Positions 5,164-54,985 of a stretch of 64,000 bases of DNA are shown piece by piece. The stretch covers positions 1,138 to 65,137 of the forward strand of contig JANXMF010000216.1 in NCBI GenBank assembly GCA_025354795.1, written 5' to 3'. The translations under genes and the position numbers were made by a program. The stretch is from Pseudobdellovibrionaceae bacterium (lineage in GTDB: Bacteria > Bdellovibrionota > Bdellovibrionia > Bdellovibrionales > UBA1609). Each line of letters opens with the position of its first letter. Position 1 is the first letter of the stretch. The notes beneath the pieces were generated by a model. The model did not search any database and had not been told where the DNA came from. It was given only the letters and a program-made list of their open reading frames with translations.

Positions 5164-5179
5164 AATCTAAATACCTTCT

Positions 5180-6325: not shown

Positions 6326-6358
6326 CAGAGTCTTCTTAGGCCACATACTGTTCACATC

Positions 6359-6865
6359 ATGAGCGACGATAATAATATAGAAAAGGCCGAAACGCCCGAA
6401 GAGCCCAAAGCAACCGAAAACCTGGGCGAAGAGTTGGCGAAGGCAAAAAAAGATTACCTCTATTTGCTCGCGGAATTTGATAACTACCGCCGCAATGCCG
6501 TGAAGGAACGCTCCGATTTGCTTAAATTTGGCAGCGAGCGCTTTGTGCGCGAGTTCCTCAACGTCTACGACAATTTCGAGCGTGCGCTAGAAACCGAGGT
6601 CACCGAGGAGAATTTCACATCCTTCCGTGATGGAATCGGCTTGATCCAGGCCGAGATGAAAAGCCTGCTACTACGCTTTGCGGTCGAAGAAGTGGACTCC
6701 ATTGGTAAGCCTTTTGATCCATCCAAGCACGAAGCTTTGGGCAGTGAACCAAATGCTGAGCTTCCGGCGGGTCACATCGCCCGGGTGTTTAAAAAGGCGT
6801 ATAAAATGCACGACAAGTTGATCCGCCCGGCGCAAGTGACGGTGACCGCGCCCGCCAAAAACTAG
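6359..6865 (+). CDS. grpE: Nucleotide exchange factor GrpE
   Basis: 168 aa. The segments YLLAEFDNYRRNAVKE and GKPFDPSKHEA are GrpE signatures. Confidence 0.9.
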   Translation: MSDDNNIEKAETPEEPKATENLGEELAKAKKDYLYLLAEFDNYRRNAVKERSDLLKFGSERFVREFLNVYDNFERALETEVTEENFTSFRDGIGLIQAEMKSLLLRFAVEEVDSIGKPFDPSKHEALGSEPNAELPAGHIARVFKKAYKMHDKLIRPAQVTVTAPAKN

Positions 6866-7882: not shown

Positions 7883-9880
7883 ATGAAAATGCAGCTGTGG
7901 TTCACTCTCCTAATTTTTCAACTGTTATTATCGTGCGTTTCGGCGCCTAAGAAAAACCCGCCCGTGGTGGCTTCCTACGATGCCAAAAAAGAATTGGCCC
8001 AGGTGCAAATTGAAATCGCCGCCGGCAGTGACAAGCGCGCGGTGCAAAAATTGCGCAACATTATCGCGAAACATCCGCGTAGTGACGTCGCCGACGATGC
8101 TACCATTCAGCTCGCGCGCTACTACTATCACAAGAGCATGTTTGAACCCGCTTATCAGGCGTATATCAGCTTGGTCAATTCGGATGTATTTAGTCCGAAC
8201 GAAAGCGAAGCTTTACTCGGTGCCGCGCGCTGTCTGAGCAAACTCGGCCGCTTGGACGAAGCCTTGGCACTCAATGCGCGCGGCCTAAAGATCGTGGGCC
8301 TGTCGCCAAGCTTTCAGTTGGAATTCCATAAATTGCGCTATTCGATTCTCACCGCACTTGGGGATCGCGTCGATGCACTCAAGACTTTGGCCTTTATTTA
8401 TGATCACGAGCCCAACGCTGAAATCAAGGTCAACGCGCAAAACCGCGCCAGCGAGATCGTCAATCGCTATCTCAACCAAACCGACTTGGAAAAAATCACC
8501 GACAATTCCGATTTCGGCTTTGTACGTGCGACCGCCGCTTATCGTCTGGGGACGCTGCGCTTGCAAGGCAAAGACATCGATGGCGCGCGCACCATGTTCA
8601 CGCACGCCCGCGACTGGGGTCAAGGGACGCTGAATGCGCAACAAGCAGAGAACTATTTGGCTCAGATCGAATCGCGACGCAAAGTGGATCCTTACGCTAT
8701 CGGCGCGGTGTTACCGCTGACCGGAAAGCACGCGCCCGTCGCCCAAAAAACGCTCAAGGGTCTTGAATTGGGTTTAGGAATTTACGGCAAAGAGCGTTCG
8801 CAATTTAAATTGGCGTTAACCGACAGCGAAGGTACTCCCGAAGGCGCGCGCCACGCGGTTGAGCGCCTGCTCGCGGAGGACAGCGTAATCGCCGTGGTCG
8901 GAAGCCTTTTGAGCCGCACAGCTACCGCTGTCGCTAGCAAAACCGAAGAGCTCGGAGTGCCATCGATCGCGCTGTCGCAAAAGTCGGGTCTTACGGAAGG
9001 CGGCACTTATGTATTCCGCAATTCCGTCACCGGCGAAATGCAAGTGCGTGAGCTGGTGCGCCTGGCGATGGACCAGTTAGGCTACAAACGCTTCGCCATT
9101 CTCTATCCCAACGATTCGTACGGCGTCGAATACGCCAATTTGTTTTGGGACGAAGTCTTGACTCACGGTGGCACCATCAGTGGAGCGCAGATCTATAGCC
9201 CGGAGGAAACCGATTTTCGCGCCCCCATTCGCCGCCTAGTGGGAACTTACTATGTCGAGGATCGCAAAGCAGAGTATCAAAATCGCGTGCGCGAGTGGTT
9301 TACAAAGCAAAAGTCACTGAAAGGGCGCAATTCACCGCCTGATGATTTGCTGCCGCCGGTGGTTGATTTTGATGCGGTATTTATTCCCGACAGCCCGAAA
9401 GCGTTGGGCCAAATCGCACCGATGATGGCCTACCAGGGCGTAAATAGCGCGCGTTTACTAGGCACCAATATTTGGAACAGTGCTGAGCTGCTGCGTCGGG
9501 GCCAGAAAAATGTGGAGAATGCGCTTTTTTTCGACAGCAATCTCACCGCCGATCCGGCCTTTAAGTCCTCGCACTTTTATCAAGAATTTAAGAGGGTTTA
9601 TGGCGACGAACCCGGTCTATTCGAGGCGCAAGGTTATGAGGTCGGGGTGCTGCTGCGGCAACTGATTACCGGCGGACAAACCACGCGTATCGGTTTAGCT
9701 CAGGGCTTAGCCAGCCTACGGGAATACAAGGGTGTCTCGGGACCTATGTCAATGAATGCCCAGCACGAACTGGTGCGTCCGCTCACCCCGCTGGTGGTTA
9801 ATCAGGGCGCCATTGTGGCCTGGAATGCCGGCTTCGAAGGTGTGCCCGCTTCGAGCAAACAAAAGGGTAGCAAAAAATAA
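7883..9880 (+). CDS. Lipoprotein with N-terminal TPR-like domain and C-terminal type I periplasmic-binding fold (LpoA/LppC-like, possible penicillin-binding protein activator)
   Basis: Signal peptide with lipobox LLLSC. The helical repeat region spans roughly residues 60-260. It is followed by AIGAVLPLTGKHAPVAQKTLKGLELG...VIAVVGSLLSRTA, which is typical of the LivK/LppC-type fold. Confidence 0.55.
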   Translation: MKMQLWFTLLIFQLLLSCVSAPKKNPPVVASYDAKKELAQVQIEIAAGSDKRAVQKLRNIIAKHPRSDVADDATIQLARYYYHKSMFEPAYQAYISLVNSDVFSPNESEALLGAARCLSKLGRLDEALALNARGLKIVGLSPSFQLEFHKLRYSILTALGDRVDALKTLAFIYDHEPNAEIKVNAQNRASEIVNRYLNQTDLEKITDNSDFGFVRATAAYRLGTLRLQGKDIDGARTMFTHARDWGQGTLNAQQAENYLAQIESRRKVDPYAIGAVLPLTGKHAPVAQKTLKGLELGLGIYGKERSQFKLALTDSEGTPEGARHAVERLLAEDSVIAVVGSLLSRTATAVASKTEELGVPSIALSQKSGLTEGGTYVFRNSVTGEMQVRELVRLAMDQLGYKRFAILYPNDSYGVEYANLFWDEVLTHGGTISGAQIYSPEETDFRAPIRRLVGTYYVEDRKAEYQNRVREWFTKQKSLKGRNSPPDDLLPPVVDFDAVFIPDSPKALGQIAPMMAYQGVNSARLLGTNIWNSAELLRRGQKNVENALFFDSNLTADPAFKSSHFYQEFKRVYGDEPGLFEAQGYEVGVLLRQLITGGQTTRIGLAQGLASLREYKGVSGPMSMNAQHELVRPLTPLVVNQGAIVAWNAGFEGVPASSKQKGSKK

Positions 9881-9951
9881 CCGATTCTTAAGCAGCCTCT
9901 GTCCTACTTGGAACCGAGCGCCTGCTCGGGCCAACGAATCAGGAGGAGGCC

Positions 9952-10311
9952 ATGTTGACCAAGACGGTGATTTCCGCGTGTAAAGAGAAATTGTTGACCA
10001 TCAAATTCGAGTTGCTCAACCGGGTGCGCTCGGAATTCCAGAACCTGCGCGAACGTGAGGTGGGCGGCGATGAAGCCGACCAGGCCGTCTCCATGCTCGC
10101 GGAGAGCCGCAGTTTTTTTACGCAAATGCGTCTGCGCTCACAGCTGGTTGAGATTGAATCGGCTCTGGCCCGCATAGATGCCGGCACCTACGGCACCTGT
10201 GAAGAGACCGACGAGCTGATCGAGCCCGAGCGCCTGCTCGCGCTGCCATGGACACGCTTGAGCTTTGAAGGGGCTGAGATTCGCGAGACCGCGGCCGCGA
10301 GACGCGGCTAA
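9952..10311 (+). CDS. DksA/TraR family protein with degenerate zinc finger
   Basis: 119 aa. A coiled-coil region is followed by IDAGTYGTCEETDELIEPERLLALPWTRLSFEGAE. This aligns with the DksA C4 finger, but only one Cys is retained. Confidence 0.65.
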   Translation: MLTKTVISACKEKLLTIKFELLNRVRSEFQNLREREVGGDEADQAVSMLAESRSFFTQMRLRSQLVEIESALARIDAGTYGTCEETDELIEPERLLALPWTRLSFEGAEIRETAAARRG

Positions 10312-10312
10312 T

Positions 10313-11383
10313 TTATTTTCGTGCAATGACCATGAAGCGTGAAAATTTAAAACCGGAAGCGTAAGCGAACTTCTTGCTGCCCGAAAAATAAATTTCGCGG
10401 CAAGGATAGCGGCCGAGCAAATCGTCGGGCGAAGTGAGCTGCACGACGTGGTCATGATTCGCCATATCGGTGCCCTGAAGCACCACTGTGATTCCTTCGG
10501 GCACCCGCTCCCACCAGGTTGTCTCGGCCAGGTGTTCCAGCGCGCAATTGATCACAATCTGCGCCGGCGGCGAATGATATTTTTCGGGCTCGCTGTAGTT
10601 CAGGCTGTGAATGTCGTGGCAAAGCGCTTTAAATTTCCAGTCCTGCCACTCCCAGGTGTTGAGAAACTGGTCGGCCGTCGCCACTGCGCGGGAGTCGATA
10701 TCAAATGAGCGGATTTTAGCGATGTTCAGGCGCTCGCGCGCGAACAATAAAAACGGCAAAAGCCCGTTCCAGCCACACAGGTGCCACACCACCTGATGCG
10801 GCAAGCTCCGCTCACCGACCACCCGTTCCAGTTCCTGGCAAAGCCACAGCTTGGAAACGATTTGCCCCGATGAAAACGCGTCGGGATCAAAAACATTTTG
10901 CGGCGGTGGCTGAAAAATCGCATAGCAATTGGGCCCAGGCACGAAGTGCTCAAAAGTCCATTCGCCAACTTTCAGAAAACCCACGCGTTGATAAAAATCC
11001 AAGTTGTCCTGGCGGGGCGCGGTCCAAAAGAGTTTGACCGCGGGATGAAGCGCCATCAAGTTTTGCAACAAAGCGCGACCCAAACCTTTTCCCCGGCGCC
11101 CGGGAAGCACGATCAACCCGCGAAGGCGAAAAGTGCCGTCACCGGTCTCAAAGCCGCTCACCGCGCCGACCAATTCGTCACCGTCATAGGCGCCCAGAAA
11201 ATGAACCTGCTTTTCAAGTAGCGACGGCTCTATGCCGCCGCCAAGTTTGATCGCACTGACGGGTAAGATCGGATCCGTCCGCAGCGGCCACAGCTGCGTC
11301 TTCCACAGCGGGAGTACGCTTGCAAAATCGATACTTTTGTAGATGAAATTCACCCCCACATATGGTGGGTCTTTGGTGGACAA
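10313..11383 (-). CDS. GNAT family N-acetyltransferase fused to a Rossmann/methyltransferase-like C-terminal domain
   Basis: The acetyl-CoA binding motif is LIVLPGRRGKGLGRALLQNL. The C-terminal half (VWHLCGWNG...IRSFDIDSRAV...INCALEH) resembles a class I SAM-dependent fold. The TTG start is uncertain. Confidence 0.65.
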   Translation of the reverse strand: MSTKDPPYVGVNFIYKSIDFASVLPLWKTQLWPLRTDPILPVSAIKLGGGIEPSLLEKQVHFLGAYDGDELVGAVSGFETGDGTFRLRGLIVLPGRRGKGLGRALLQNLMALHPAVKLFWTAPRQDNLDFYQRVGFLKVGEWTFEHFVPGPNCYAIFQPPPQNVFDPDAFSSGQIVSKLWLCQELERVVGERSLPHQVVWHLCGWNGLLPFLLFARERLNIAKIRSFDIDSRAVATADQFLNTWEWQDWKFKALCHDIHSLNYSEPEKYHSPPAQIVINCALEHLAETTWWERVPEGITVVLQGTDMANHDHVVQLTSPDDLLGRYPCREIYFSGSKKFAYASGFKFSRFMVIARK

Positions 11384-11466: not shown

Positions 11467-12214
11467 TTACAAAAGTTGCTCCAACCCTGGGTGCGTGAGT
11501 TGGTGATGGGCTGGTTTACTTTTTGGATCCTTTGCGGACTCTTTCGACTGAGGCCATATCTGAAAACGCCCGCTGCAACTGAGCCATCTTAGCGCCAAGG
11601 CATAGAGCGGAAAAAACTGTATCTTGAAGACATTCAAGCTATCAAACCCATCTTTCACACCAATCACTGGATCTACTGTGCGGACAACATGCGTGCCGAA
11701 GAGGCGGTCCCAGATACAAAGCAGTGCCCCGAAATTTTTCTTAATATACGGCTCATTGTAGGCATGATGCAGATGATGTGAAGCTGGAGTGACAAATGCA
11801 AGATTAAGGATGGGAATGCTGCCAATAAACTCAGTGTGGATGAAATTCTGATAAGCGTTGGGGATTGCAAACGCCTTTCCCGCGATCTCGGCCCCGAGGG
11901 GACTGAAATGCAAAAAATCATCGTCGAAAAGATCGAAGACGCTGACCTTGTCGAGTACCTCCCGCAATGCCCGACGCAGAGACAAGAAAACCACCCCACT
12001 CGGGCTGGCGCAAGAGGTTGGAACTTTTCTTAAGCTCGTGAGCGATCGAGGTGGTGAGTAAGAGTGAGCCGATGCCCAGATTGGGCCGGGCCTCGAGTAT
12101 ATCTTCGAGCTCTGACCCCCCGAGTCCGAGCGCGGAGACCCCTAAAGCCAAAGTTGTCCCTAGAAAGGTTCGTCGCGATGGAGCCATTCCATATTTGAAA
12201 TGACTGAGCTGCAA
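11467..12214 (-). pseudogene. Probable degraded fatty acid hydroxylase / sterol desaturase family gene (frame-disrupted, eroded His boxes)
   Basis: ORF 11467-11994 carries the C-terminal family motifs HFSPLG, FIHTEF, and VTPASHHLHHAY...NFGALLCIWDRLFGTH. The expected N-terminal HxxxH and HxxHH boxes are missing. The N-terminal part lies in a different overlapping frame (11918-12214) that begins with a twin-arginine-like MAPSRRTFLGTTLALGVSALG. Confidence 0.35.
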
Positions 12215-12727
12215 TGAGTCAATGCCTTGAATCGCGGCTCTTTCCTGCGCCTCACGCTGGCCAACGTGACGAACATCAAAGCCTTTCCTTGCGCTGCACT
12301 ATTGCGGTTTTCAATCTCTTCATCAATGACGCCTCCTTTCAAGCGGTGATGAATTCGGTGCGCATTCGCTGAACGCGGCTTAAGCGAAAAAATTCGTAGC
12401 TAAACCAAATTTATTTTGCAAATAGGGAATTTCGCAGTGATACCAGATCACCGCCGCGTTGCGCGCGCGAAGGGGATTGGCGCTAAAGGCGTGCCACGAA
12501 TACGGAGTTACCGCGAATGCCAAAAGCCGATTGTTGAGCGGCGCCACCTTTCATCTTTGTCGTCGCCATGGCGAAATCCTCCTCAATTCCCTTGCAAATG
12601 GCAAGCGCCAAAAAGCCGTGTGTTTTAACGCTCGCTATTAACGTTTGAAATTGAAACGCCAACGTAACATTTCTCGTTGACCTTCGTCTTAAATTGACCC
12701 GGAGGGGTCGCGTTTCACTCGATACCC

Positions 12728-14212
12728 ATGATAATATTGAGCAATAACGTCTCTCTCTTTAAAAACGGGTTGTGCGTGATTCGGCCTCAGCAACATCTTG
12801 GGACTTCGGGATATTCGCTTGTTGAAGTCATGGTGGTGGTTGCGGTTATGACCGTGGTGGCACTTGGCGTCACCTCCATTCTGCAAAACATTACGGTGGC
12901 AACAACCACACAAAAATACACTTCTGAAACCAGCAACTTTAACGAAGAGGTTCGCGCCCTACTCGCCGACCCCGAAGCTTGCCGACGAACTTTTACTAGT
13001 GCGCCTATCGTTTTGGCCTCTCCCATCAATGCGGTCATCAACCAATTGCGCGACGGGCTCAACAATGTGGTGGTGGACACGAACGTCCCGGCCACTGGAG
13101 ATTACGGCGACAACTCCGGCCGGCTGACGAAGATGGTGATCGATACCTATCAAGACACCACTCCTGGCTACGGAGTGGCGGAGTTTCGCCTGTTTTACAC
13201 TCCCAGAGGGGCCGTGCAAGGCACCAGACCTCTCGCTCGGCTCATCATGCTGCAGACTCATAAGAATGCTGGCAACGCGCTCGATCGTTGTGTGCAATTG
13301 GCGAAAATGAGCGATGGCATTTGGCAAATCGTTCCCGCCAACATGCCGTTTGATTCTTTTTTTAGTGGCGGGGCTCTCGGCATTGGTACCACTGCGCCGG
13401 TTGCCGATTTGGATGTACGCGGTCAAGTCGCGTGGGGCGACTCGCTCGGCTCCCTTAGCGTGCTAAACAGTGACCAAGGCGGAAGTATCGAACTGGGAGC
13501 GCCCGACTTAGTCACCAACCCCGTAGCGGTGGCACTGAACGAGCAGCCGGCGATCAACTTTCACTATGGCTATAACGTCATGCCTGGACCAGATGTGCAA
13601 ATTGTCAACCAGACGGCGGTTGATCTCGCCGTGTACACCACCAACGCAGGTCGGGTGCAGGTGGCCAAATTTAATGCACAGAATGGTTTCAACCCATACT
13701 ACATGTCGGTCAACTCGCCAGCTGGGGCGGGTGCGCATAAGCGGCTCGACGTCAACGGTCCGGTGAATCTTTTAGGCGGCGCAAGGTTTTTTGCCGACTA
13801 CATACCCATTTGCTCGGCCGCCGGCTGTGTGCGCATTTCCGATATGCGCCTCAAAGAAAATATCAAACCGTTGAAAAACTCGCTTGCGGCAATTGATAAA
13901 CTCCAGGGCGTGACTTTTGATTGGATTGATCCCGTAAAGTACACCCCGCGAACCCAGGTGGGGATGATCGCGCAAGAGGTTGAGAAAGTTTATCCCGAAG
14001 TGGTGCAGACCGACGGTCTCGTCGGCTACAAATCAATGACTTATGACAATCTGGTCGCACCCGCGATTGAGGCGATAAAAACGCTCTACGAGAATGCCAC
14101 TGGTTTAAAGGCGCGGGTGGACGCGCTCAAAATTAAAAATAAAAAACTGGCGCAAGAGAACGCCGAAATCCAACGCCGCCTCGAGGCTTTGGAAAAGAAA
14201 GTGGGTCGGTAG
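12728..14212 (+). CDS. Type IV pilin-like / tail-fibre-like protein with C-terminal Peptidase S74 intramolecular-chaperone domain (paralog 1 of 3)
   Basis: Prepilin-type motif LGTSG|YSLVEVMVVVAVMTVVALG with Glu at +5. Cys pair C85/C188. Fibre motifs GALGIGTTAPVADLDVRG and QGGSIELGAP..INFHYG. S74 module from ISDMRLKENIKPL (Ser371/Lys376) through GMIAQEVEKVYPEVV, ending in a coiled coil. The start codon and leader length are uncertain. Confidence 0.8.
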   Translation: MIILSNNVSLFKNGLCVIRPQQHLGTSGYSLVEVMVVVAVMTVVALGVTSILQNITVATTTQKYTSETSNFNEEVRALLADPEACRRTFTSAPIVLASPINAVINQLRDGLNNVVVDTNVPATGDYGDNSGRLTKMVIDTYQDTTPGYGVAEFRLFYTPRGAVQGTRPLARLIMLQTHKNAGNALDRCVQLAKMSDGIWQIVPANMPFDSFFSGGALGIGTTAPVADLDVRGQVAWGDSLGSLSVLNSDQGGSIELGAPDLVTNPVAVALNEQPAINFHYGYNVMPGPDVQIVNQTAVDLAVYTTNAGRVQVAKFNAQNGFNPYYMSVNSPAGAGAHKRLDVNGPVNLLGGARFFADYIPICSAAGCVRISDMRLKENIKPLKNSLAAIDKLQGVTFDWIDPVKYTPRTQVGMIAQEVEKVYPEVVQTDGLVGYKSMTYDNLVAPAIEAIKTLYENATGLKARVDALKIKNKKLAQENAEIQRRLEALEKKVGR

Positions 14213-15787
14213 ATGACCAACTTTCAAATTAAACATAGGGCAGCCGGATTTTCACTTATCGAAGCCATGGTCGTGGTGGTGGTCGTTGCCGTCATGGCTC
14301 TTGGGGTCGCCACTCTCTCGCAAAATATCTCGACCACCGCGGCCACTCAGAAATACCTGGTCAATACCAACAATTTTGCCGAAGAGATTCGCGCGCTACT
14401 CAGCGATCCCGCCAATTGCCAACAAACTTTTACCAGTGCTCCCGTAAATCTCGCCGCACTCCCGGTGGGCATTGCCAACGTGCAAGATTCCGCCGGCACC
14501 ATTCGCTACGATACCGCCCTAGGAGCGAATGCCTATGCGGATCGCGCAGGCACATTCACCAGCATGACCCTGGATCAATACAACGATGGGGGCGCCCCAT
14601 TACTTTACGGCACCGCACGCCTCACCCTGATCTTTAGCGCGACCGCGCAAGTTCCTATCAATGGTGGCCAGGCAATCAAGAAGACCATTTTATTGCAAAC
14701 GCACCGAACGCCTGGCTTCATTGTCGATGGCTGTGTAGCTTTGTCCCATATGCAAAGCCGCGTGTTCAATGCGGGCGCCCGCATCGACGAGCGGGTGACC
14801 GGTGCCGCCTGGCAAAACATTATTAATACAACTGACGCGTTTTACAATACGGGCCGGGTGGGGATAAATCTAGGGGTCGATGCCTTCGGAGTTCCCTTAG
14901 CGCCCGCGTATCCGCTCGAAGTGAGGCGAGCACTGGCGGCAGCTTCAGTCGCCTCGCCTGTCATCGCTTGGGGCGATCCCGTGGGTGGTCAAAGTCTGTT
15001 GACTTCCGTGGGAGGCGGAACCATTGAACTGAATGGCTCCCTCCCGGCCGTAGCACCTGCGGTTCCGAGTACGCCTTACGTCGATTTCCACTTTGGAAAT
15101 GGCGCTCCGGAGCAGTTCAATGTTCGGCTCCGCAACACGGCGCGGGGTCGTCTCACCATGGCGAGTGCAACCAAAGCAAGCATCGCCGAATTTCTAACCG
15201 GCACTCACCCTCTCGCCCCAAATCCGAACACCGGGACCCTGATTATCAACGGCACTCCCCTCGACATCTCGACTTACAATCCCTTCTACGCGATGGAAGT
15301 CCGCGGCGATCTCAATGTCAATGGTACGCTTTTCGTATCCAATAATCCCCTGGCTAGTTGCACCAACGCCGGTTGCACCGGAGCCTCCGACATTCGCTTG
15401 AAGAAAAACATCAAACCCCTGACCAATTCCCTCGAGCAGATCTTGCAACTGCGCGGAGTCAGCTACCAGTGGAAAGACAAAGAGCGCTTTGGCAAAGGTC
15501 CACAAATCGGGTTTATCGCCCAAGAGGTTGAAAAAGTTTATCCCCTCCTAGTAGAGACCGACCCGCGTAGCGGCCTCAAATCCGTCAACTATAGCCATAT
15601 GATTGCGCCGGCCGTTGAAGCCATCAAACATTTGCACACCAATTTGATGCGTCTGGAAAGTAAATCGGAACAATTGAGCGCGGATGACGAGCAATTGGCA
15701 CTCGATAATTCCGAACTCAAGAAACGTATTCTGGCGCTCGAAGAAAAAGTGCGCACCCGCAAGGCTGTAGCTCGGAGGAAAAAGTGA
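14213..15787 (+). CDS. Type IV pilin-like / tail-fibre-like protein with C-terminal Peptidase S74 intramolecular-chaperone domain (paralog 2 of 3)
   Basis: The ATG directly abuts the paralog 1 stop. Prepilin-type motif MTNFQIKHRAAG|FSLIEAMVVVVVVAVMALG. Cys pair C69/C174. Fibre motifs GGGTIELNG...PYVDFHFG. S74 module ASDIRLKKNIKPL (Ser392/Lys397)...GFIAQEVEKVYPLLV, ending in a coiled coil. Confidence 0.85.
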   Translation: MTNFQIKHRAAGFSLIEAMVVVVVVAVMALGVATLSQNISTTAATQKYLVNTNNFAEEIRALLSDPANCQQTFTSAPVNLAALPVGIANVQDSAGTIRYDTALGANAYADRAGTFTSMTLDQYNDGGAPLLYGTARLTLIFSATAQVPINGGQAIKKTILLQTHRTPGFIVDGCVALSHMQSRVFNAGARIDERVTGAAWQNIINTTDAFYNTGRVGINLGVDAFGVPLAPAYPLEVRRALAAASVASPVIAWGDPVGGQSLLTSVGGGTIELNGSLPAVAPAVPSTPYVDFHFGNGAPEQFNVRLRNTARGRLTMASATKASIAEFLTGTHPLAPNPNTGTLIINGTPLDISTYNPFYAMEVRGDLNVNGTLFVSNNPLASCTNAGCTGASDIRLKKNIKPLTNSLEQILQLRGVSYQWKDKERFGKGPQIGFIAQEVEKVYPLLVETDPRSGLKSVNYSHMIAPAVEAIKHLHTNLMRLESKSEQLSADDEQLALDNSELKKRILALEEKVRTRKAVARRKK

Positions 15788-17256
15788 AATCGTTAAGACC
15801 CTCCGGTTATTCATTGATAGAATTGTTGGTGGTGGTGGCGATCTCCTCGATAGTCGCGCTCGGTGGAGCGGCTTTGATCCAACGCACCATGACCGCCACT
15901 TCTACCCAGCAACTGCATACCAACGCGGCGGATTTCAAAGAAGAGTTGCGCGCCATGCTCAGTCGCCCCGATGCGTGTTTCAATTCCTTTGGCGGGATTG
16001 TACTCAACGGTGCGACCGATCAACTCTATGCGGCTCTGAACGACGTCGACGGCCTTCATCCGCTGCAAAAGTCTTATATCTCGAATGCAGGCGGGGCGGT
16101 TTCCACCGCGAATCCCATTGAAAATACTTTGAATACTCAAGTCACCCAGTTTCGCCTGCTTAACTATCAGGATCTTCCCAACGTCCCCTCCTATGGCATC
16201 GCCACCCTGCGGATGCTCGTCAACACTCAAGCCCAGGTGGATGGTTCGCAAACACTCACGCGCGACATCGTCATCCGCACGAAAAAGGATGCGGCCAATG
16301 CTTTGGTCTACTGTGTCGCTCAAAGCAAAACGCTGGGGACCATCTGGCAACAGGCGCCAGCACCCAACAATACCGATCTGATTTTCAACGGCGGCGGCGT
16401 TGGCGTCGGCGCGCCTGTTCCGGGGGGCATTCCCTTGAATGTGAGCGCAAGAACCGCGGGCAGTTGGACGCTTGGGTGGGGCGCGGTTGGGGGCGCAACC
16501 CAAAGTGCTTTTATCAATGATCAGGGCGGCTCGATTGAACTGGGCGCTCCCGCCACTCCCTTAACTCCGGCGCAGAACACCGTTGCCAATGGTGCACCGT
16601 ATGTGGACTTCCATACCCCGTCCGCTCCCGCAGTGGATTTCAACATGCGCATCCAAAATAAAGCAGACCAAGTTTTTACCGTGGACTTTCCCTCGGGTGG
16701 AGCCCCGCAGGAGATTGCGCGCTTTCAAGGCAACCTCGGTTTCTCGCAGTTGGGTGTAGGGCTCACGCCATCAGCGGCCTACACGGTCGATGTGGCGCCT
16801 CACATGAATCTCGAAACTGGACTCTTTATCAACAACGTACAGGTGCTCGGCTCCACTGGGCCATGGCCACCCATTTCCGACGCGCGGTTAAAAGAAAAAG
16901 TAAAGCCGCTGGTGGATCCGCTCGGGCACTTGCTAAAAATCCAAGGCTACAGTTTTGAATTTAAGGACAAGGTCCGATTCACTAAGGATCCGCAGATTGG
17001 CTTGATGGCCCAAGAGGTGGAGAAGGTCTACCCCGAAATAGTCATCAACGACAATAGCTCAGGGTTCAAATCAATGACATACGACCGGCTTTTGTCTCCC
17101 CTCGTTGAATCTGTTAAATCTATTTACACGTCGCTCACCGACCTTGAAGGTCAGGTGACCGAACTGGTGGAAAAGCACCGAAAATTGAAAGAAGACAACT
17201 TCGCGTTTAAAAAACGCCTAACGGCACTCGAACAGCAGCTCGCGCAACCTGAATAG
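15784..17256 (+). CDS. Type IV pilin-like / tail-fibre-like protein with C-terminal Peptidase S74 intramolecular-chaperone domain (paralog 3 of 3)
   Basis: The GTG start overlaps the paralog 2 stop (GTGA) and GGAGGA lies 6 nt upstream. Prepilin-type motif MKSLRPSG|YSLIELLVVVAISSIVALG. Cys pair C65/C177. Fibre motifs QGGSIELGAP...PYVDFHTP. S74 module ISDARLKEKVKPL (Ser365/Lys370)...GLMAQEVEKVYPEIV, ending in a coiled coil. Confidence 0.85.
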   Translation: MKSLRPSGYSLIELLVVVAISSIVALGGAALIQRTMTATSTQQLHTNAADFKEELRAMLSRPDACFNSFGGIVLNGATDQLYAALNDVDGLHPLQKSYISNAGGAVSTANPIENTLNTQVTQFRLLNYQDLPNVPSYGIATLRMLVNTQAQVDGSQTLTRDIVIRTKKDAANALVYCVAQSKTLGTIWQQAPAPNNTDLIFNGGGVGVGAPVPGGIPLNVSARTAGSWTLGWGAVGGATQSAFINDQGGSIELGAPATPLTPAQNTVANGAPYVDFHTPSAPAVDFNMRIQNKADQVFTVDFPSGGAPQEIARFQGNLGFSQLGVGLTPSAAYTVDVAPHMNLETGLFINNVQVLGSTGPWPPISDARLKEKVKPLVDPLGHLLKIQGYSFEFKDKVRFTKDPQIGLMAQEVEKVYPEIVINDNSSGFKSMTYDRLLSPLVESVKSIYTSLTDLEGQVTELVEKHRKLKEDNFAFKKRLTALEQQLAQPE

Positions 17257-17271: not shown

Positions 17272-18954
17272 GTGAAGAAACTTAGTATCGCAAAAAATCT
17301 AGCGCTCGCTTTGGTCGCGCTGACCCTCCTTCTCAACGCTGTGTGGGCGGGTTACCATTCGTTTTGGACGGATTCGGAAATGTGGGCGGTGATTTCGGTG
17401 CGTTCAATGTTCGCCACTACCGGTGAATATAACGGTGCCGTTAAACCACTCTTGGATTTTCTGCTGTGGGTGTGTTTTCAAGCGGCCGAGCATTTGGCGG
17501 TCCACCCGATGTTCACCGCGCGCGCGCTCTTTGCCCTCAACGAACTTTTGACCGTGGGCTTGTTTTTTTATCTGTGCCGGCGCTTGAGCCAAAGCCGGGG
17601 CCTGGCTTTTTTAATCACGCTGCTGCTGGTTTCAAACTCATTTTTCATCAAGCGCTTTTGTCATGTGCGCTCCGATTTGCTCATCACCAATTTTCTACTG
17701 CTCCTCTGTTGGCTACAGGACACCCCACGTTGGCAGCGGGCCTCGAACACTGTGCGCCTCGGTTACGTCATGCTTTTCACGCTTGTGGCAATAACCGTCA
17801 CACCAAAAGCCGTACTGCCTTTTGCGCTATGGACCCTGGCTTTTGCACGCTCCGAGCTACGCCAAACCTTTGCTGGTCGTCGCGGCCTGATTTTGATTGG
17901 GGCGGGATTGTGGATGGCGATCGCCTATGCCAGCTGGAACTGGCAAGCCTTACGTTTTTTATCACTTTCATTGGCCACCACCGCCGAGCACGCGTATTTC
18001 GGCGCGTACCGCTTCCAGCATGTGGGGCGCTTTATAAGGGAAAATGCCGTGATTCTCGCGGTATTTGCATTCAATCTTTACCTGCTCATCCGCCGCGCGC
18101 AGGTGCAAAGGCCCGAATATTTTGTATTCGCGAACCTGGTATTGATCGAGCTCCTGTTCTATCCCGACCGTCTGCCTTTTTTTATCGCCGCCCTCATTCC
18201 GTTTTGGCTGCTACCGCTCAGCTGTGCAAAAGATTTCTTGGCGCGCATCCTGGCGCGGCGTCGGCTTTACGCCGCAACACCATACATAATTTTAGTTTAT
18301 GGGATGATCAATCTCGGGCTTTGGAGTTATGTGGTCGAGACCTTTCATACCAGCGATGAACAGGAAGAGATCGTCACCTGGCTCGAGGAAGCACGGGTGC
18401 CGTTGAGTACCCTGGTGGTGTATGACCCGGTCGGACTCATGCCGTTTTCTCCCTCGCTCAACTGGTTTGTCGGGCCTGACGAAATTTGGAACTCGATAGT
18501 GCTCTTAAAACTTGAAGCAGACCCTCCCGCGGTGATTTTTTTCACCATGCGTCTGTTTTTATTGGGCACGGAATTTTTGGATTTCCTACAGGCAAACTAT
18601 TGGTCCGATGGTCACGGGATTTTTATTCGTCGCGTGCCCTTTCCGACTGAAACCACGCCGTTCAATTGCGCGACCCTCAAAGACTTTGTTCTTAAAAACT
18701 GGCCGAAGGCCACCGCAGCCCCGCAACGCATTTACTACCTTAACGCGTTGAATAAGGCGGGCGAATCATTGGAAGTGCCCGGCAGCGAAGTGTGGCGGGA
18801 AGAGGCTCGCGGTTTCCGCTGGACCGATCTCGCTCGCTGTAAAGATTTGCGCCTTCCCAAAGACCTGGCGCGCCTGGACGTGCTGCCTGCGCGGCTCGTT
18901 AATCCCACCCACTTAGAACTATCTACGTCGTTTCGATTTGATCCCGAGTACTAG
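17272..18954 (+). CDS. GT-C fold membrane glycosyltransferase, ArnT/PMT_2-like
   Basis: 560 aa with about 10 or more hydrophobic segments and a C-terminal soluble domain of about 190 aa. The first loop FWTDSEMWAV...VKPLLDFLLW...ARALFALNELLTVGLFFYLCRRL matches the DE...KPPL...R pattern of ArnT/PMT-type enzymes. Confidence 0.6.
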   Translation: MKKLSIAKNLALALVALTLLLNAVWAGYHSFWTDSEMWAVISVRSMFATTGEYNGAVKPLLDFLLWVCFQAAEHLAVHPMFTARALFALNELLTVGLFFYLCRRLSQSRGLAFLITLLLVSNSFFIKRFCHVRSDLLITNFLLLLCWLQDTPRWQRASNTVRLGYVMLFTLVAITVTPKAVLPFALWTLAFARSELRQTFAGRRGLILIGAGLWMAIAYASWNWQALRFLSLSLATTAEHAYFGAYRFQHVGRFIRENAVILAVFAFNLYLLIRRAQVQRPEYFVFANLVLIELLFYPDRLPFFIAALIPFWLLPLSCAKDFLARILARRRLYAATPYIILVYGMINLGLWSYVVETFHTSDEQEEIVTWLEEARVPLSTLVVYDPVGLMPFSPSLNWFVGPDEIWNSIVLLKLEADPPAVIFFTMRLFLLGTEFLDFLQANYWSDGHGIFIRRVPFPTETTPFNCATLKDFVLKNWPKATAAPQRIYYLNALNKAGESLEVPGSEVWREEARGFRWTDLARCKDLRLPKDLARLDVLPARLVNPTHLELSTSFRFDPEY

Positions 18955-21900
18955 TTGCCTAATAAAGCCGGCGTCAATATGTTCAAAACGCACATGAAGA
19001 TTGAAAGAACCAAAGCTGTACTTAGCGTGGTCGTTCCCACCCATCAGCGGCCGCACTGCGTGCGGCGTTTACTTGTCAGTCTGGCGCGCCAAACTTTGCC
19101 CAGCACCGATTTCGAAATTATTCTGGTGAGCAATTTTATCGAGCCTCGGCTGCAAAAAATCGTGGACAAATGGCGCGCGGCCACCGGGCACAGGATTCAA
19201 CTCTTGGTGGCAGGGCAACTCGGGGTCAATCGCGCGCGCAATTTGGGCCTTCGTCACAGTGACGGCGAAGCCGCGTTGTTGCTCGACGATGATTGCTATC
19301 TTCCCGATCCCAAATATCTTGAGGCGTTGCTGAAGGTGCACGCCCAGACTCCCGGGGTGTTGGCGGTGGGCGGGGCTTATCTCGATTCGCCGGAATTGGG
19401 TGGCGCCGGCACTTACTACAACCTTCATTGCAACCAATGGCTCGGCGGCGATGAGGCCCACGCCCGCTTGACCACGCGCCTGCTTGGCGGCGCGGTCTCG
19501 TATAAAATGCCACCACTGCGCGCCCATGGACTTGGTTTTGATGAAGCCATTCCCTATGGCGGTTCGGAAACGGAATTTCATGATCGCTTGGTGGCGGCGG
19601 GCTTCCAACTGATGTTCCACCCACGCTTGGCCGTGGTTCACGCTTGCCACATTTCCACAATAACTCTACTGCGTAAAGCTTATCGCCAAGGCGAGGGTCA
19701 CGCGCGTATAGGAAAGAGCGCTGCGTCGGAAGCGGATCAAAAACCGCGGCGGCGTTCTCTCCATCAACGGGTCTACGCGCGCGGCTTTACTCTGGGCGAA
19801 AAATCCTTTGCGCGCACAAAAGCACCGAGCGGCGAGCGCACGATCTACTGGCTTTATTTTTTTTCGCTGCTGCGGGTGCTGCAGCAGTTGGCATTGGTGC
19901 CGCTGCGAGCGGCGGGTGGTGCGGTTTTTTGGAGCGCTTATAGGCTGCTCTACCGCATTGGAGGAATCGCCTGGGCGCTGACCGTCAAAACCTATTGGAT
20001 TATCTATCCAGTCCCGCGGCATATCTATTGGAGCGCGGTTCGCGCTAAGGGTTTGGCGCGCACCCTACTCAGCAAAATTTATTGGCGGGTGTTGAGGCCG
20101 CACCGACTGCTGGCGCGGGCTACGCAAATGTATTGGACCTTTTATCCTGTCACTTATTATTTGAAATCGGGTGGCTGGCGGCGGCCGCTCGAGTTGCTGC
20201 GGCTCAAGATGCCGCTGACGTATCCTGCGTTTGAAACTTCGGGCCCTCCGCGCTGGACGCTTCGCTATCACGAGGAATTCCGCTCCTGGTCGGAACTTTA
20301 TGTGCGCACTGTGGCACTCGACAGCCCGTGGTTTCATAAAGCCGACGAGGTTCGGCAGAGTGGCTTGCAACCGCAGCTGAATTTCGCAGCCTCGCAAGAG
20401 ATCGTTACTGCTGAATTGGACGTGGAAATCTGCGTGAACGTAAGGGTCTCGCAAATGGCTTCAATGCACGCACAAATCTTAGAGCGCTTGCGACGCTGCG
20501 AACGCAAACTCGGACTCTGTTTCGTTTTGGATGCCCGGCCGCGGCCGCGGCTCCTCGCGGATTTTTTGAGTGCCGCCCGCCAATTGCCACAAGTTGAGTG
20601 GTTTTCGCTGGAGATGTCGCTGGCGGGTATTTTAATTCCTCAGTCCGGCTTCGAAGCCTTTCGCCGCTTTCATATTTTTTCCCGCGCGTGCGAACATTTA
20701 AACCTCCCTTGGCGACCCCATTACAAGGTGGAACCGCCGGTGTGCCTATTGGCGCTCGAGCATCCGGCGCGTTTCACACCGGCTTACTTGTCCGCGGCCG
20801 TGGCTCCCATCGTGTCGGTGATCATTCCCCACCATTGTGATCTCACCTATTTAAGGGCGGTGCTAGCGTGCTTCTGCCGGCAGAATCTACCGCGTTCGGA
20901 GTTTGAGATTTTAATTGTCGACAACGGAGTCGCCGCGGATCTTGCGGCGCCGGCCGATGCTGCGCACCTGATCGCCGATTTTTCCGAACTCAATCTCGCG
21001 TTACACACCCTCGAATCCACCAGTGCGGAACTCTTCCTGTCCGGCCACGCGCGCAACGTCGGACTCAAGCATGCCAAAGGCCGAATCATTCAGTTCATGG
21101 ATTCGGACATTCTTTTTGGCGAGAACTTTTTGCGCGAGCTGATTGCGCGCATGGAAACTTGCGATGTGGTCATGGCCAAGCGCTCAATGTTGCGCGAAGG
21201 TTGCCGGCCGGGCGACCCTGCCGGCGTCCAAGAGACGGATTTTTATCAGGAGAATGAATACTGGGAAAATTTCAAGAGCGCAGTCCACTGGATCGATCTC
21301 GCGGACCATTGGAAATACGCCTGCACCTATTGTTTAGCGGTGAAACGTTCCGTCCTTGCGCTCTCGGGCCCGTTTGATCCGGAATTCACCATGTACGGCT
21401 TCGAAGATGTGGATCTGGCGTTTCGCTTATTCAAACAAAATGCGCGGTTTGGCTTTGCCCAGTCGTGGGTCTTGCATCTCTTCCCCAGCCGCGACAAGCA
21501 CAATTATCATGTCAACGAAGCCCGGCGCGCGCGGGCCCTGCAGCTCTCCGCCCTGACGCTGTTTAAGCTGCGCCCCGAAAAGCTGACCTTCATACTCTGC
21601 CAAACTTATTTTGCGCCGACGTTGCAACAGTGGTTGCAACAGGCAGCACCTCGCCTACTCGGCAAACGCAAGCATGTTGTGGCGCCGCCCGCAGTGGAGC
21701 GCAGCTCCGCTGGAATTTCGATTGTGATTCCATGTCTGAATGAGGAGCGCACCATCGCGATCGCGGTCGATCAAGCTTTTGCGGCGCTGGAAAAGTGCGG
21801 TGGGGGCGGCGAGGTGCTCGTGGCCGATAACGGCAGCGACGACCGCAGCCGCGAAATCGCTCGCCGCCATGGCGCGCGCGTGGTCTCGTGCCCTGAGCGG

Positions 21901-22386
21901 GGCTATGGCGCCTGTTTGCGCGCCGGGTTACACTCCGCGGCGTTCGAGTATTTGGCCATGGTCGACGCCGATCTTTCCTATCCGTTGCTTGAACTGCCAA
22001 ATTTGATTGCGGAAATCGACAAGGGCTGTGATTTTGTTTTGGGCAATCGTTTGCGCGGCTTGATTGAGCCACGCGCCATGCCGTGGTTGAATCGTTATGT
22101 CGGCACTCCGGTGCTGTCGTGGATTTTGCGCCGGCTCTACGCCCTTCCGACCTATGACTGCAACAGTGGTATGCGCGCCTTCACCCGTTCGCATTTTTTA
22201 GCGATGAATCTGCGCAGCTCGGGCATGGAGCTCGCGTCTGAGATGCTGGTGCGCGTGGCGCAACTGAACTTACGCTATGGCGAAGTCGCGATTTCTTTTC
22301 ACAAAGATCAGCGCCGCGGAAAATCGCATTTGAATCGCTGGCGTGATGGCTGGCGACACTTGCGCTTGATTTTACGCAACCCCTAA
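18955..22386 (+). CDS. Multidomain glycosyltransferase with three GT2 (GT-A fold) domains, the last DPM1/ArnC/GtrB-like
   Basis: GT2-1 is LSVVVPTHQRP...LLLDDDC. GT2-2 is IVSVIIPHHCD...FMDSDIL. GT2-3 is ISIVIPCLNEERTI...VADNGSDDRS...AMVDADL. A hydrophobic YW-repeat linker spans residues 296-412. Alternative ATG starts exist at 18979 and 18994. Confidence 0.8.
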   Translation: MPNKAGVNMFKTHMKIERTKAVLSVVVPTHQRPHCVRRLLVSLARQTLPSTDFEIILVSNFIEPRLQKIVDKWRAATGHRIQLLVAGQLGVNRARNLGLRHSDGEAALLLDDDCYLPDPKYLEALLKVHAQTPGVLAVGGAYLDSPELGGAGTYYNLHCNQWLGGDEAHARLTTRLLGGAVSYKMPPLRAHGLGFDEAIPYGGSETEFHDRLVAAGFQLMFHPRLAVVHACHISTITLLRKAYRQGEGHARIGKSAASEADQKPRRRSLHQRVYARGFTLGEKSFARTKAPSGERTIYWLYFFSLLRVLQQLALVPLRAAGGAVFWSAYRLLYRIGGIAWALTVKTYWIIYPVPRHIYWSAVRAKGLARTLLSKIYWRVLRPHRLLARATQMYWTFYPVTYYLKSGGWRRPLELLRLKMPLTYPAFETSGPPRWTLRYHEEFRSWSELYVRTVALDSPWFHKADEVRQSGLQPQLNFAASQEIVTAELDVEICVNVRVSQMASMHAQILERLRRCERKLGLCFVLDARPRPRLLADFLSAARQLPQVEWFSLEMSLAGILIPQSGFEAFRRFHIFSRACEHLNLPWRPHYKVEPPVCLLALEHPARFTPAYLSAAVAPIVSVIIPHHCDLTYLRAVLACFCRQNLPRSEFEILIVDNGVAADLAAPADAAHLIADFSELNLALHTLESTSAELFLSGHARNVGLKHAKGRIIQFMDSDILFGENFLRELIARMETCDVVMAKRSMLREGCRPGDPAGVQETDFYQENEYWENFKSAVHWIDLADHWKYACTYCLAVKRSVLALSGPFDPEFTMYGFEDVDLAFRLFKQNARFGFAQSWVLHLFPSRDKHNYHVNEARRARALQLSALTLFKLRPEKLTFILCQTYFAPTLQQWLQQAAPRLLGKRKHVVAPPAVERSSAGISIVIPCLNEERTIAIAVDQAFAALEKCGGGGEVLVADNGSDDRSREIARRHGARVVSCPERGYGACLRAGLHSAAFEYLAMVDADLSYPLLELPNLIAEIDKGCDFVLGNRLRGLIEPRAMPWLNRYVGTPVLSWILRRLYALPTYDCNSGMRAFTRSHFLAMNLRSSGMELASEMLVRVAQLNLRYGEVAISFHKDQRRGKSHLNRWRDGWRHLRLILRNP
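19840..20190 (+). repeat. Coding tandem repeat: aromatic-Trp(-Arg) motif units inside the triple-GT2 protein
   Basis: The units are RTIYWLYFF, KTYWIIYPVPR, HIYWSAVRAKGLARTLLS, KIYWRVLRPHRLLARATQ and MYWTFYPVTYYLKSGGWRRP, with irregular spacing of 11-18 aa. Confidence 0.6.
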
Positions 22387-23156
22387 AAACGCCAATGCCT
22401 AGCCAAACCACGGACCACAAAAATACCCAGGGTTGCCGAGGCACGAAGACGATTGAGCTTTTCCCTCTGGCGATAAATAATCCAAGTTTCGCGCAAACTG
22501 CGCCATTTGTCGGATCCGCGCGAACCCAGAACAATGCGGTAGCGCACCAAATCTTGCTGCAAACCGATGCATGAACTTCCGCCCTGGAGTAGCGACAACC
22601 ACAGGGCGAAGTCCTCGCACCCCATCTCGGGAAAACGTACCTTTCCCACCCGCCGCCGATTCAACATCACGCTCGAGCACAGGATGCAGTTCTGCTGCAA
22701 GAGTCGCTGATAGGAAATCCGCGGCGGTACCGAGAGCACGCGCCCGACGCGCACGCCCCCGGTGTCGATACGGCGAAAGCTAGTGCTGCAGAACCCACCC
22801 GCCGCGCCTTCTAAAACTCGCACCTGGCGCGCGAGTTTTTCCGGCAACCACACATCGTCGCTGTCGAGAAAAGCAATGTAGTCGTCCTCGGCGTTTTCCA
22901 ACCCACAGTTCCGCGCAGCACTTACGCCTGGACTCGCAGCCGTCAAGACCCGAATGCGCGGGTCGCGCCGGGCATAGGCGTGGGCAATAAGGCCGGATTC
23001 ATCGCCGCTCAAAGGATCAAGAATTAAGTAAAGCGTCCAGTGTGGATAAGTCTGTGCGCAAACCGAGTCGATGGTTGCCGTTAAAAAGCGTGCGGCGTTA
23101 AATACCGGAGTGAGAATCGATACCGGCGGCGAACTCGGAAATTTTACTTTCGACAT
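22383..23156 (-). CDS. Glycosyltransferase family 2
   Basis: MSKVKFPSSPPVSILTPVFNAARFLTATIDSVCAQTY...FLDSDDVW shows the GT-A nucleotide-binding start and a DxD motif. The long ORF extends to 23204; the ATG at 23156 was chosen. It overlaps the upstream gene by about 59 nt. Confidence 0.8.
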   Translation of the reverse strand: MSKVKFPSSPPVSILTPVFNAARFLTATIDSVCAQTYPHWTLYLILDPLSGDESGLIAHAYARRDPRIRVLTAASPGVSAARNCGLENAEDDYIAFLDSDDVWLPEKLARQVRVLEGAAGGFCSTSFRRIDTGGVRVGRVLSVPPRISYQRLLQQNCILCSSVMLNRRRVGKVRFPEMGCEDFALWLSLLQGGSSCIGLQQDLVRYRIVLGSRGSDKWRSLRETWIIYRQREKLNRLRASATLGIFVVRGLARHWRF

Positions 23157-23982
23157 AGTAGGGCCTCTCCGCAAATTGCATCCAGAGGCGGTTGGCGCGC
23201 ACAACCGCCGCGTAGAGCACGACCAAAGCGATCACAGTCGGATTTTTTTCCGCCCACAGATGGTGCCAAACCGTAGCGCCCGGCCCGTGCGCGGGCCGCG
23301 AAGGCGAGCGGCCGTGAAGCCGCGCCCGTTGAAAAAACGCAAGCAAGGAATGACCGCAGTGATGGTAAACAAAAAGCTCCGGCAGGTGCTGAATGCGAAT
23401 GCCATGACGCCTAAGATTTTCGCACAGGTCCAATTCTTCACCGCCAAAAAAGTGCTGCAGCGAAAACGGAAAGCTGCGACCTGCAAAAGCCATCTTCGGC
23501 AGTAAAATATTTCCCGCTAGCGCCAGGGGTTGAGGCGCATTGAGATGCGCCTTTAACCACAGATTCGCCATGGAATTATAGGCCCGGCGCAACACCCCAC
23601 TGTTTTCCGGTGAACGATAAAAACCCGCATAGGCGCTGGTGCCGCGGGTAAAGCGCATGCTCTGTGCAAAATAAGCTAAAAAACCGTCGGGCAACTCGCA
23701 GTCTTCGTCGAGAAAATAAACCATGGACCCGCGCGCTTCGTGGTAAAGACGATTGCGCAGTTCAGAGAGATTCCCGCCCTCGCTGTGTATCCAGCGTAGC
23801 GCCGGAAAGTTTTGCAGCAACGCGGGCGGCATGGATTCCAGAGTGTTGGGACTCCCCACTAAGACTTCATAACTGACGCCATGCTGCGTTTGATTTTGCA
23901 AACTGGTGAGAAGGCGAAAGAGGTGGGTATAGACGGCCTGCGAGGAGATCGCGATGCTCACGCTTACCTTTGGCATCGCCAA
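23098..23982 (-). CDS. GT2-like glycosyltransferase, paralogous to the first domain of the triple-GT2 protein
   Basis: KVSVSIAISS...YEVLVGS...VYFLDEDCELPDGF. The segment FGGEELDLCENLRRHGIRIQHLPELFVYHHC parallels YGGSETEFHDRLVAAGFQLMFHPRLAVVHAC in the 1143-aa protein. Confidence 0.7.
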   Translation of the reverse strand: MAMPKVSVSIAISSQAVYTHLFRLLTSLQNQTQHGVSYEVLVGSPNTLESMPPALLQNFPALRWIHSEGGNLSELRNRLYHEARGSMVYFLDEDCELPDGFLAYFAQSMRFTRGTSAYAGFYRSPENSGVLRRAYNSMANLWLKAHLNAPQPLALAGNILLPKMAFAGRSFPFSLQHFFGGEELDLCENLRRHGIRIQHLPELFVYHHCGHSLLAFFQRARLHGRSPSRPAHGPGATVWHHLWAEKNPTVIALVVLYAAVVRANRLWMQFAERPYYVESKISEFAAGIDSHSGI

Positions 23983-24053
23983 TTCCCATCCCCCTTTAGA
24001 GAAATTCCACCGACCACTTTGTTACTACAGCCACTGGACTGGCAACAAGTATT

Positions 24054-25968: not shown

Positions 25969-26043
25969 TTCTCAACTCGGGGTGAGGGTTGCAAATCCAT
26001 TGGGGAGCCTGCTTGGAGGCAGGGAAATTGTCAAACACCTATC

Positions 26044-26433: not shown

Positions 26434-26788
26434 CCCAGCGGCGAGAATTCACCAAGTTGTGGTTGGAATAAGCAATCGTTTGCGCGCAAAGAAAACCCAC
26501 CCTGAGCGCTCCCGCTAGAATCAAAAGCCATTTGTAAACCATGTTTCCCTCTCATCACCAGCTTTGCACAGCCTTAGTGACCTGTGCATGGCTGACCGCA
26601 CAAGTGAAAACATAGGCTCATTTTAAGAATCGGCTTGGGACTCACGGCCAGGAAAGGTCTTAATGAGCGATTACGAGGCTATTTTCCAGACCAAATGCAC
26701 GTGCTTCCTTCTTAAAGCCCTTAATTCACATAGCCGAGAAGTATCACACGAGTAAGCCACTTTCTCGCGCCCTAAGCGGAGGCAGCAA

Positions 26789-54984: not shown

Positions 54985-54985
54985 T

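Follow-up and report, generated by a model that had tools for sequence, protein, structure and literature searches.

We focus here on three adjacent genes at positions 12728-17256 of a 64,000-nucleotide stretch of DNA (contig JANXMF010000216.1 of assembly GCA_025354795.1; the whole stretch is called the window below). Each of them joins a prepilin-type N-terminus to a fibre of the kind found in the Bdellovibrio MAT proteins and in phages, ending in a self-cleaving trimerisation chaperone, and this combination is established by homology. We propose, with confidence that is evenly balanced, that each gene encodes a modular minor pilin carrying a short trimeric fibre, and that the product would be a homotrimeric adhesin, probably located at the tip of a type IV filament.

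The three open reading frames (ORFs) encode 494, 524 and 490 residues on the same strand, exactly where a sequence-only reading of the window had placed them, and both translationally coupled junctions that it described were reproduced (TAG and ATG abut at 14210-15, and at 15784-87 the genes overlap in GTGA). ORF1 (12728-14212, + strand) has a leader at residues 1-28 with predicted cleavage after G28, a pilin-like helix and head at about residues 29-198 (12812-13321), a fibre body at 199-370 (13322-13837) and, at 371-494 (13838-14209), an S74 intramolecular chaperone (IMC) domain with a coiled coil and the dyad S371/K376. ORF2 (14213-15787, +) has a leader at residues 1-12, a head at 13-199 (14249-14809), a fibre body at 200-391 (14810-15385) and the S74/IMC domain and coiled coil at 392-524 (15386-15784; S392/K397). 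ORF3 (15784-17256, +), whose GTG start overlaps the stop codon of ORF2 and has GGAGG about 8 nt upstream, has a leader at residues 1-8, a head at 9-187 (15808-16344), a fibre body at 188-364 (16345-16875) and the S74/IMC domain and coiled coil at 365-490 (16876-17253; S365/K370). The class III signals reported earlier are all present, with YSLVE after G28 in ORF1, FSLIE after G12 in ORF2 and YSLIE after G8 in ORF3, each followed by a hydrophobic stretch. So are the cysteine pairs of the head, which is about 170 residues long (85/188, 69/174 and 65/177 in ORF1, ORF2 and ORF3), the fibre and S74 motifs (GALGIGTTAPVADLDVRG, QGGSIELGAP, P(Y/A)(V/I)(D/N)FH and G(M/F/L)(I/M)AQEVEKVYP) and the SD(M/I/A)RLK sequence at 371, 392 and 365, respectively. 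The start of ORF1 is ambiguous, since ATG 12728 gives the 28-residue leader and the in-frame TTG 12770 or GTG 12776 gives a more usual one of about 12-14 residues.

The N-terminal region was compared with two curated prepilin models, N_methyl (PF07963, gathering score 21.2 bits) and TIGR02532 (cut-off 16.3 bits). ORF1, ORF2 and ORF3 score 21.1, 26.3 and 26.1 bits against the former and 18.8, 15.6 and 24.7 bits against the latter; each protein lies above at least one cut-off, with ORF1 just missing PF07963 and ORF2 just missing TIGR02532, and the prepilin-type N-termini are in this way upheld by hidden Markov models. Modular pilins have been defined as proteins in which an N-terminal IPR012902 motif is joined to a grafted non-pilin module (PMC8179133), and the trio, with its prepilin matches and its additional domain, falls under this definition. 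No class III signal was found in the window outside these three proteins. An AlphaFold2 model of ORF2 residues 2-225 has a continuous N-terminal helix of 54 residues (9-62), followed by a short helix and four long antiparallel strands, at a mean pLDDT of 66.7, with values of 70-84 in the core and a disordered linker after the head; the topology of this model is that of a pilin. When helix and head were compared together, as a profile, with PDB sequences, all ten matches were type IV pilins, headed by geopilin (6e-4) and followed in order by PAK pilin, TcpA, MshA and PilA. A profile of the head alone gave no match among PDB sequences, and the head domain has no Pfam or NCBIfam model. The head cysteine pair is invariant across 103 family representatives, which fits folding outside the cytoplasm and lends weight to the earlier suggestion that these proteins fold in the periplasm, a placement that we infer.

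At the C-terminus, PF13884 (Peptidase_S74, gathering score 22 bits) matches ORF1, ORF2 and ORF3 with 67.9, 74.1 and 52.8 bits (E = 9e-19, 1e-20 and 5e-14), well above the cut-off in all three, and the SDxxxK dyad together with a fold match bears out the original S74 assignment. The Ser-Lys dyad is intact in the trio, and an alignment of 26 sequences shows no variation at the S, D and K of SDxxxK. In an AlphaFold2 model of ORF2 residues 205-524, pLDDT exceeds 90 over the S74 domain (residues 190-320 of the model) and the long terminal helix, and the best structural relatives found by Foldseek are MyRF ICA (7DC3; E 1.2e-5, TM 0.67), the endosialidase IMC (3GW6) and GA-1 (3GUD). The fibre part of the same model is poor, as expected for a single chain of a trimer. 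This part was related to known fibres by profile comparison. Profile A8, which covers fibre and S74 and contains the window's three sequences, matches the crystal structures of the MAT fibres Bd2133, Bd1334, Bd3182 and Bd2439 at 5.5e-17 to 6.5e-5, and the family profile A7 matches the same four at 1.8e-17 to 1.7e-7 (Bd2133 8OND, 1.8e-17 with A7 and 5.5e-17 with A8; Bd1334 8OML/8ON4; Bd3182 8OJN; Bd2439 8OL4). Both profiles also match MyRF. The MAT match spans a repeated unit, SDxIWQ...GNVGIGTxxPxxxLxVxG, which in the window proteins stands directly after the head, and one family member, P0206, matches the MAT structures as a single sequence. As judged by these matches, the fibre body of the trio is built from units of the Bdellovibrio MAT/MyRF type.

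The head also defines a family of considerable size. A word-indexed search with full-length sequences made the fusion look almost unique, and a word-indexed homologue search with the head-only profile A4, which leaves out the pilin helix, returned nothing at all, the query proteins included; an exhaustive HMMER search was needed. With A4, this search recovered at least 1,069 cluster representatives at E <= 1e-3, 406 of them at <= 1e-10, and in light of this count the earlier picture was misleading. A Pfam scan of 103 representatives found Peptidase_S74 in 50 and N_methyl in 30, and the apparent rarity of the fusion does not stand. The head starts at about residue 35-50 in all members, and total lengths range from about 180 to 820 residues. 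Other tips among the 103 are YadA_head, H_lectin, Gly_rich_2, HINT and Peptidase_G2, one each, and End_tail_spike in two. Members with variant tips include P0144 (locus L035, 8142-10172), P0124 and P0121-P0123, whose tips comprise HINT (intein-like), H-type lectin and Cys-rich repeats, many of them in proteins with Gln, Ser or Thr at +5. A hydrophobic N-terminus led by Gly is present in 126 of the 145 best family representatives, with F at +1 in 47 and E at +5 in 54 of those 126, and by these sequence features most N-termini of the family are of class III type. The sole relative with an organism name comes from a Pseudobdellovibrionaceae metagenome-assembled genome.

The closest functional precedents are CofB of the CFA/III pilus of enterotoxigenic Escherichia coli and TcpB of the TCP pilus of Vibrio cholerae, in which a pilin module is likewise followed by beta-rich homotrimerising domains, known there and predicted here. 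Their trimers sit at the pilus tip, start assembly and serve as a platform for adhesion or receptor binding (PMC6048534, PMC8179133). The H-type lectin end of CofB also occurs in one relative of the head family. This resemblance is confined to function, there being no sequence homology beyond the N-terminal helix, and neither CofB nor TcpB appeared among the PDB sequence matches of the helix-plus-head and fibre profiles. Furthermore, neither CofB nor TcpB needs a cleavable chaperone to trimerise, and the genes of both are part of their own pilus operons; trimerisation of the trio, by contrast, is predicted to proceed via a self-cleaving S74 cap, and its genes are remote from any pilus operon. 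PilB and PilC of Streptococcus sanguinis (PMC8179133) share with the trio the N-terminal IPR012902 motif and a grafted module; their modules (vWA, lectin) are, however, monomeric, and the fibre here is predicted to be trimeric. The phage fibres and tailspikes (K1F endosialidase, T5 pb1, S16 gp37 and GA-1 gp12) and MyRF agree with the trio in the sequence and fold of the C-terminal domain, but their N-terminus attaches to the virion or is a transcription factor, where the trio has a pilin-type helix and head.

Taken with these precedents, the following course of events can be proposed. The preprotein would enter the inner membrane and expose its body to the periplasm, and the short basic leader would be cut after Gly by prepilin peptidase, as the signal suggests. 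The head disulphide would form in the periplasm, as the invariant cysteines suggest, and the S74 domains of three identical chains would associate and drive folding of the triple fibre. By homology with endosialidase, T5 pb1, MyRF and Bd3182, the Ser-Lys dyad would then cut at S371, S392 or S365 and the cap would leave, yielding a mature trimer of about 340-380 residues per chain with three pilin-type helices at its base. This trimer would most likely make up the tip of a type IV filament, supplying its first three subunits, with the filament machinery encoded elsewhere, and would be displayed as an adhesin or receptor-binding device in the manner of the CofB and TcpB homotrimers. The tip location is inferred by analogy with these two homotrimers; the same idea in the sequence-only reading thus acquires a precedent, and the location itself keeps its conditional standing. 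A CxxxxC pair was seen 4-9 residues before the predicted cleavage Ser in ORF1 (C362/C367, 13811-13828) and ORF2 (C383/C388, 15359-15376) and is absent from ORF3; if cleavage occurs, this pair would end up at the extreme C-terminus of the mature fibre in ORF1 and ORF2.

Several observations weigh against placing these proteins in a filament. In a Foldseek comparison with the PDB, the head model had no significant match and no pilin in its top 50, the best matches being NTF2-like or VirB8-like (E ~0.02). In many family members position +5 is occupied by S, T or Q rather than Glu, and in part of the family the N-terminus could be merely a membrane anchor. Genes for pilus or type II secretion machinery, a prepilin peptidase or a major pilin are absent among the window ORFs scanned and beside the relatives examined. 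The scan covered almost all non-nested ORFs of at least 150 residues in the window, and the absence of pilus machinery genes that had been read from the sequence holds within it, five ORFs of 150-213 residues lying outside the scan (6-647, 26031-26558, 51124-51678, 51675-52157 and 58898-59458). These points feed the main rival explanation, which we consider possible without thinking it probable. In it, the trio encodes MAT-like surface fibres outside any filament, the N-terminus serves only as an inner-membrane anchor or as an export and sorting signal, and the trimer either reaches the cell surface, where MAT adhesins sit on the predator, or bridges the periplasm. The MAT proteins (Bd3182, Bd2133; Caulton et al. 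2024, PMC10769870) share with the trio the repeat unit, the SDxxxK S74 cap and a mosaic of S74 and non-S74 tips. The homology of the fibre units, the Pseudobdellovibrionaceae origin of the named relative, the members with no Glu5 or a plain hydrophobic N-terminus and the lack of pilus genes near any locus are all in keeping with such fibres, as is the lack of a fold match for the head in the PDB, which is also reported for the MAT N-terminal domain (PMC10769870). On the other hand, MAT proteins are described as having 900-1150 residues, a Sec signal peptide of about 20 residues and a conserved beta-rich N-terminal domain of about 130 residues (PMC10769870), whereas the trio has 490-524 residues, a class III signal and an alpha/beta head, the N-terminal domains being compared by description only. 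The trio also keeps the full G-(F/Y)SL(I/V)E signal, passes curated prepilin models and has, as modelled, a helix of 54 residues as in pilins. Furthermore, the gene that follows the trio accompanies other, unrelated prepilin-type genes at a further locus (L039, below), which supports a pilin-type role. The absence of Glu5 can moreover be read in the other direction, since its frequent loss in the family would fit a tip position, as for GspK. The placement in a type IV filament is the one that we retain as our working proposal.

How the three chains would combine is a separate matter. The sequence-only reading had offered a heterotrimer or three homotrimers, with preference for the former. Homotrimers are more likely than a 1:1:1 heterotrimer, given that relatives have single genes, that the fibre bodies are unequal and divergent, that no recent gene conversion is visible and that, to our knowledge, the S74 fibres characterised to date are all homotrimers. 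Over their whole length the paralogues share 35-39% identity. Pairwise identity is 44-50% in the leader and hydrophobic helix, 30-39% in the head, 29-32% in the fibre body, 53-58% in the S74 core and 34-38% in the coiled coil; the fibre is thus the most divergent region and the S74 core the most conserved, and the fibre bodies of ORF1, ORF2 and ORF3 differ in length (172, 192 and 177 residues) with indels. The sole direct repeat at the DNA level among the three genes is a 39-nt signal-coding stretch, which argues that the copies are old and leaves no recent gene conversion visible. Inverted repeats suggestive of a shufflon-type switch were looked for and none was found. Since close relatives have a single such gene, the trio is an old, lineage-specific tandem duplication. 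Translational coupling, similar overall lengths and the existence of heterotrimeric tip complexes such as GspI-J-K speak for one obligatory 1:1:1 heterotrimer. We nevertheless judge it unlikely: relatives at 29-43% identity have one gene followed by the same partner, and other family members are stand-alone genes. The trio would, instead, probably give three alternative homotrimeric tips of different specificity.

A further explanation follows from the name of the C-terminal domain. In the survey of Raynaud et al. 2021, the combination IPR012902-IPR030392 was the sixth commonest modular-pilin architecture, with 29 proteins in addition to YadA-like-S74 variants, and the S74 part was taken as a peptidase, the architecture being taken no further there (PMC8179133). 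A search of the literature for the pilin-S74 fusion found no functional description and nothing beyond this survey. The architecture is thus uncharacterised, as had been supposed from the sequence, but it had not gone unnoticed. A pilus-borne peptidase effector agrees with this survey and with the InterPro name of the domain; characterised S74 domains are, however, folding caps that cleave themselves in a single turnover and are shed by the mature fibre (PMC10769870), and in the trio the domain stands C-terminal to the fibre units, as in the characterised cases. With S74 placed as a folding cap after the fibre units, we rejected this explanation as very improbable. Still less credible is an origin as remnant tail-fibre genes of a prophage or tailocin. 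The C-terminal region is matched by PHROG tail-fibre families, almost only at residues ~305-496 (phrog_1980 is an exception, reaching back to residue 192 of ORF2 and 159 of ORF3), and by 24 viral loci in IMG/VR, only at residues 304-514. The N-terminal helix and most of the head are covered by no PHROG or IMG/VR match, the viral contigs matching none of the head. Moreover, the genes are not embedded in a tail module, no phage genes, tRNAs or Rfam matches were found in the 64 kb window, and the neighbours are housekeeping genes. These are a hemN-like gene, grpE, a dnaJ-like gene, lon, nuoH-N, mfd, the atp operon, parAB, rsmG, mnmG, mnmE, yidC and dnaA. The prophage origin was rejected on these grounds, and the window represents an ordinary chromosomal region close to the replication origin rather than a prophage.

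The feature extends beyond the trio. The end given for it earlier, 17256, is correct for the three genes themselves but misses a conserved membrane-protein partner just beyond, which begins 15 nt after ORF3 and is encoded at 17272-18954 (+). This protein of 560 residues is polytopic, with at least six hydrophobic segments in its first ~320 residues and a C-terminal domain of ~240 residues. It belongs to an orphan family with the invariant motifs SFWTDSE-W, FYPDR-P-FIA, VYDP-GL and NYW-D--G and has no match in Pfam, NCBIfam or PDB sequences. Directly after it, at 18955-22386 (+), comes a gene for a protein of 1143 residues with three glycosyltransferase family 2 (GT2) domains, the last of which resembles polyprenyl-phosphate sugar synthases. 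On the opposite strand, at 22383-25968, lie GT2 genes (22383-23204 and 23098-23982), an ORF of 180 residues and a twitch-domain radical SAM gene, whose membership in the system is uncertain.

A first scan of metagenomes for the partner gene was empty; one locus came up with a degenerate DNA pattern designed by hand. In all, the partner is conserved in four loci, directly after pilin-S74 genes in three lineages and with other prepilin-type genes in the fourth, and the multi-GT2 gene accompanies it in three of the four. The closest relative of the trio, P0138 (L033/L034), is a single gene with 42% identity to ORF2; it is followed by a partner homologue of 550 residues (L033, 10225-11877; 43% identity) and then by a multi-GT2, GT2 and radical SAM block that matches that of the window in gene order and Pfam content. 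A distant relative, P0200 (L036/L037), is again a single gene, with a full-length partner homologue of 579 residues only 4 nt later (L036, 8680-10419; 29% identity, E 5e-56), in an unrelated context of RNase R and GroES/EL with no GT2 genes. At L039, homologues of the partner (3431-5146, - strand; 34% identity, E 6e-98) and of the multi-GT2 protein (37% identity) lie amid three genes with prepilin-like N-termini, at 5110-6807 (+), 9576-10373 (-) and 10377-11234 (-). Of their products, of 565, 265 and 285 residues, that of 285 residues scores above the curated N_methyl cut-off and that of 565 below it, and that of 265 is pilin-like by eye only. The two proteins tested for the head family, of 565 and 265 residues, do not contain it, and none of the three has an S74 match. 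The 565-residue protein is rich in Cys, Pro and Thr. Neither the partner nor pilus genes were found beside the other members examined (Gln5-type relatives, P0150, P0206 and the HINT variant); downstream of this last one, in L035, lies a gene of similar size that is not a partner homologue. Pilin glycosyltransferase genes are known to adjoin pilin genes, and by this analogy the partner and the multi-GT2 protein probably modify the pilin-like proteins, perhaps by glycosylation, or help in their assembly. This is a hypothesis only, and the weakest step of the scheme.

Turning to the surroundings, about 500 nt of non-coding DNA lie upstream of ORF1, with no promoter match above chance, and promoter and terminator scans gave results no better than chance. 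In the minus-strand ORF upstream of ORF1 (region 11467-12727), only the C-terminal half of a fatty-acid hydroxylase profile is matched, and this gene may be truncated. A public gene call for ORF1, P0133 (460 residues), begins at Met35, so that the prepilin signal is lost; given such start calls, the pilin-S74 architecture may be under-counted by automated annotation. The origin region (52500-64000) holds parB, parA, rsmG, mnmG, mnmE, yidC, a gap of ~950 nt and dnaA at 62018, and the cumulative GC skew has its minimum at 60-62 kb. Elsewhere in the window, a PDZ protein (29195-29764) resembles GspC of deltaproteobacterial type II secretion at a sub-threshold level, and 43874-44695 matches the MXAN_2562-family outer-membrane barrel below the curated cut-off. 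From their sequences, these two proteins are weak hints of a diderm host related to Myxococcota or Bdellovibrionota.

The new elements here are the reading of the fusion as a trimeric fibre, the size and mosaic make-up of the head family, the finding that the fibre body is homologous to MAT fibres, and the conserved orphan partner. These observations define a large unannotated head family whose tips can be exchanged, together with an orphan membrane partner, and the trimeric-fibre interpretation would correct the database reading of a pilin plus an S74 peptidase. If the proposal is true, it would represent a second, independent route to a trimeric pilus tip, in which the folding cap is borrowed from phage tail fibres, and it bears on how general trimeric initiator tips of the CofB/TcpB type are. 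More tentatively, the 1,000 or more cluster representatives could be widespread and hitherto unrecognised type IV filament tips, in which a phage-style receptor-binding trimer, folded in the periplasm by a disposable S74 cap, would be carried on a retractile pilus by three pilin helices that jointly make up the assembly-initiating tip, and would be serviced by the dedicated orphan membrane protein and a glycosyltransferase, a possibility to which we attach rather low confidence. These proteins are thus candidates for surface recognition coupled to type IV filaments in Bdellovibrio-like and other environmental bacteria and, if this wider reading holds, MAT-type prey-recognition fibres would in Bdellovibrio-like bacteria be physically linked to type IV pili.

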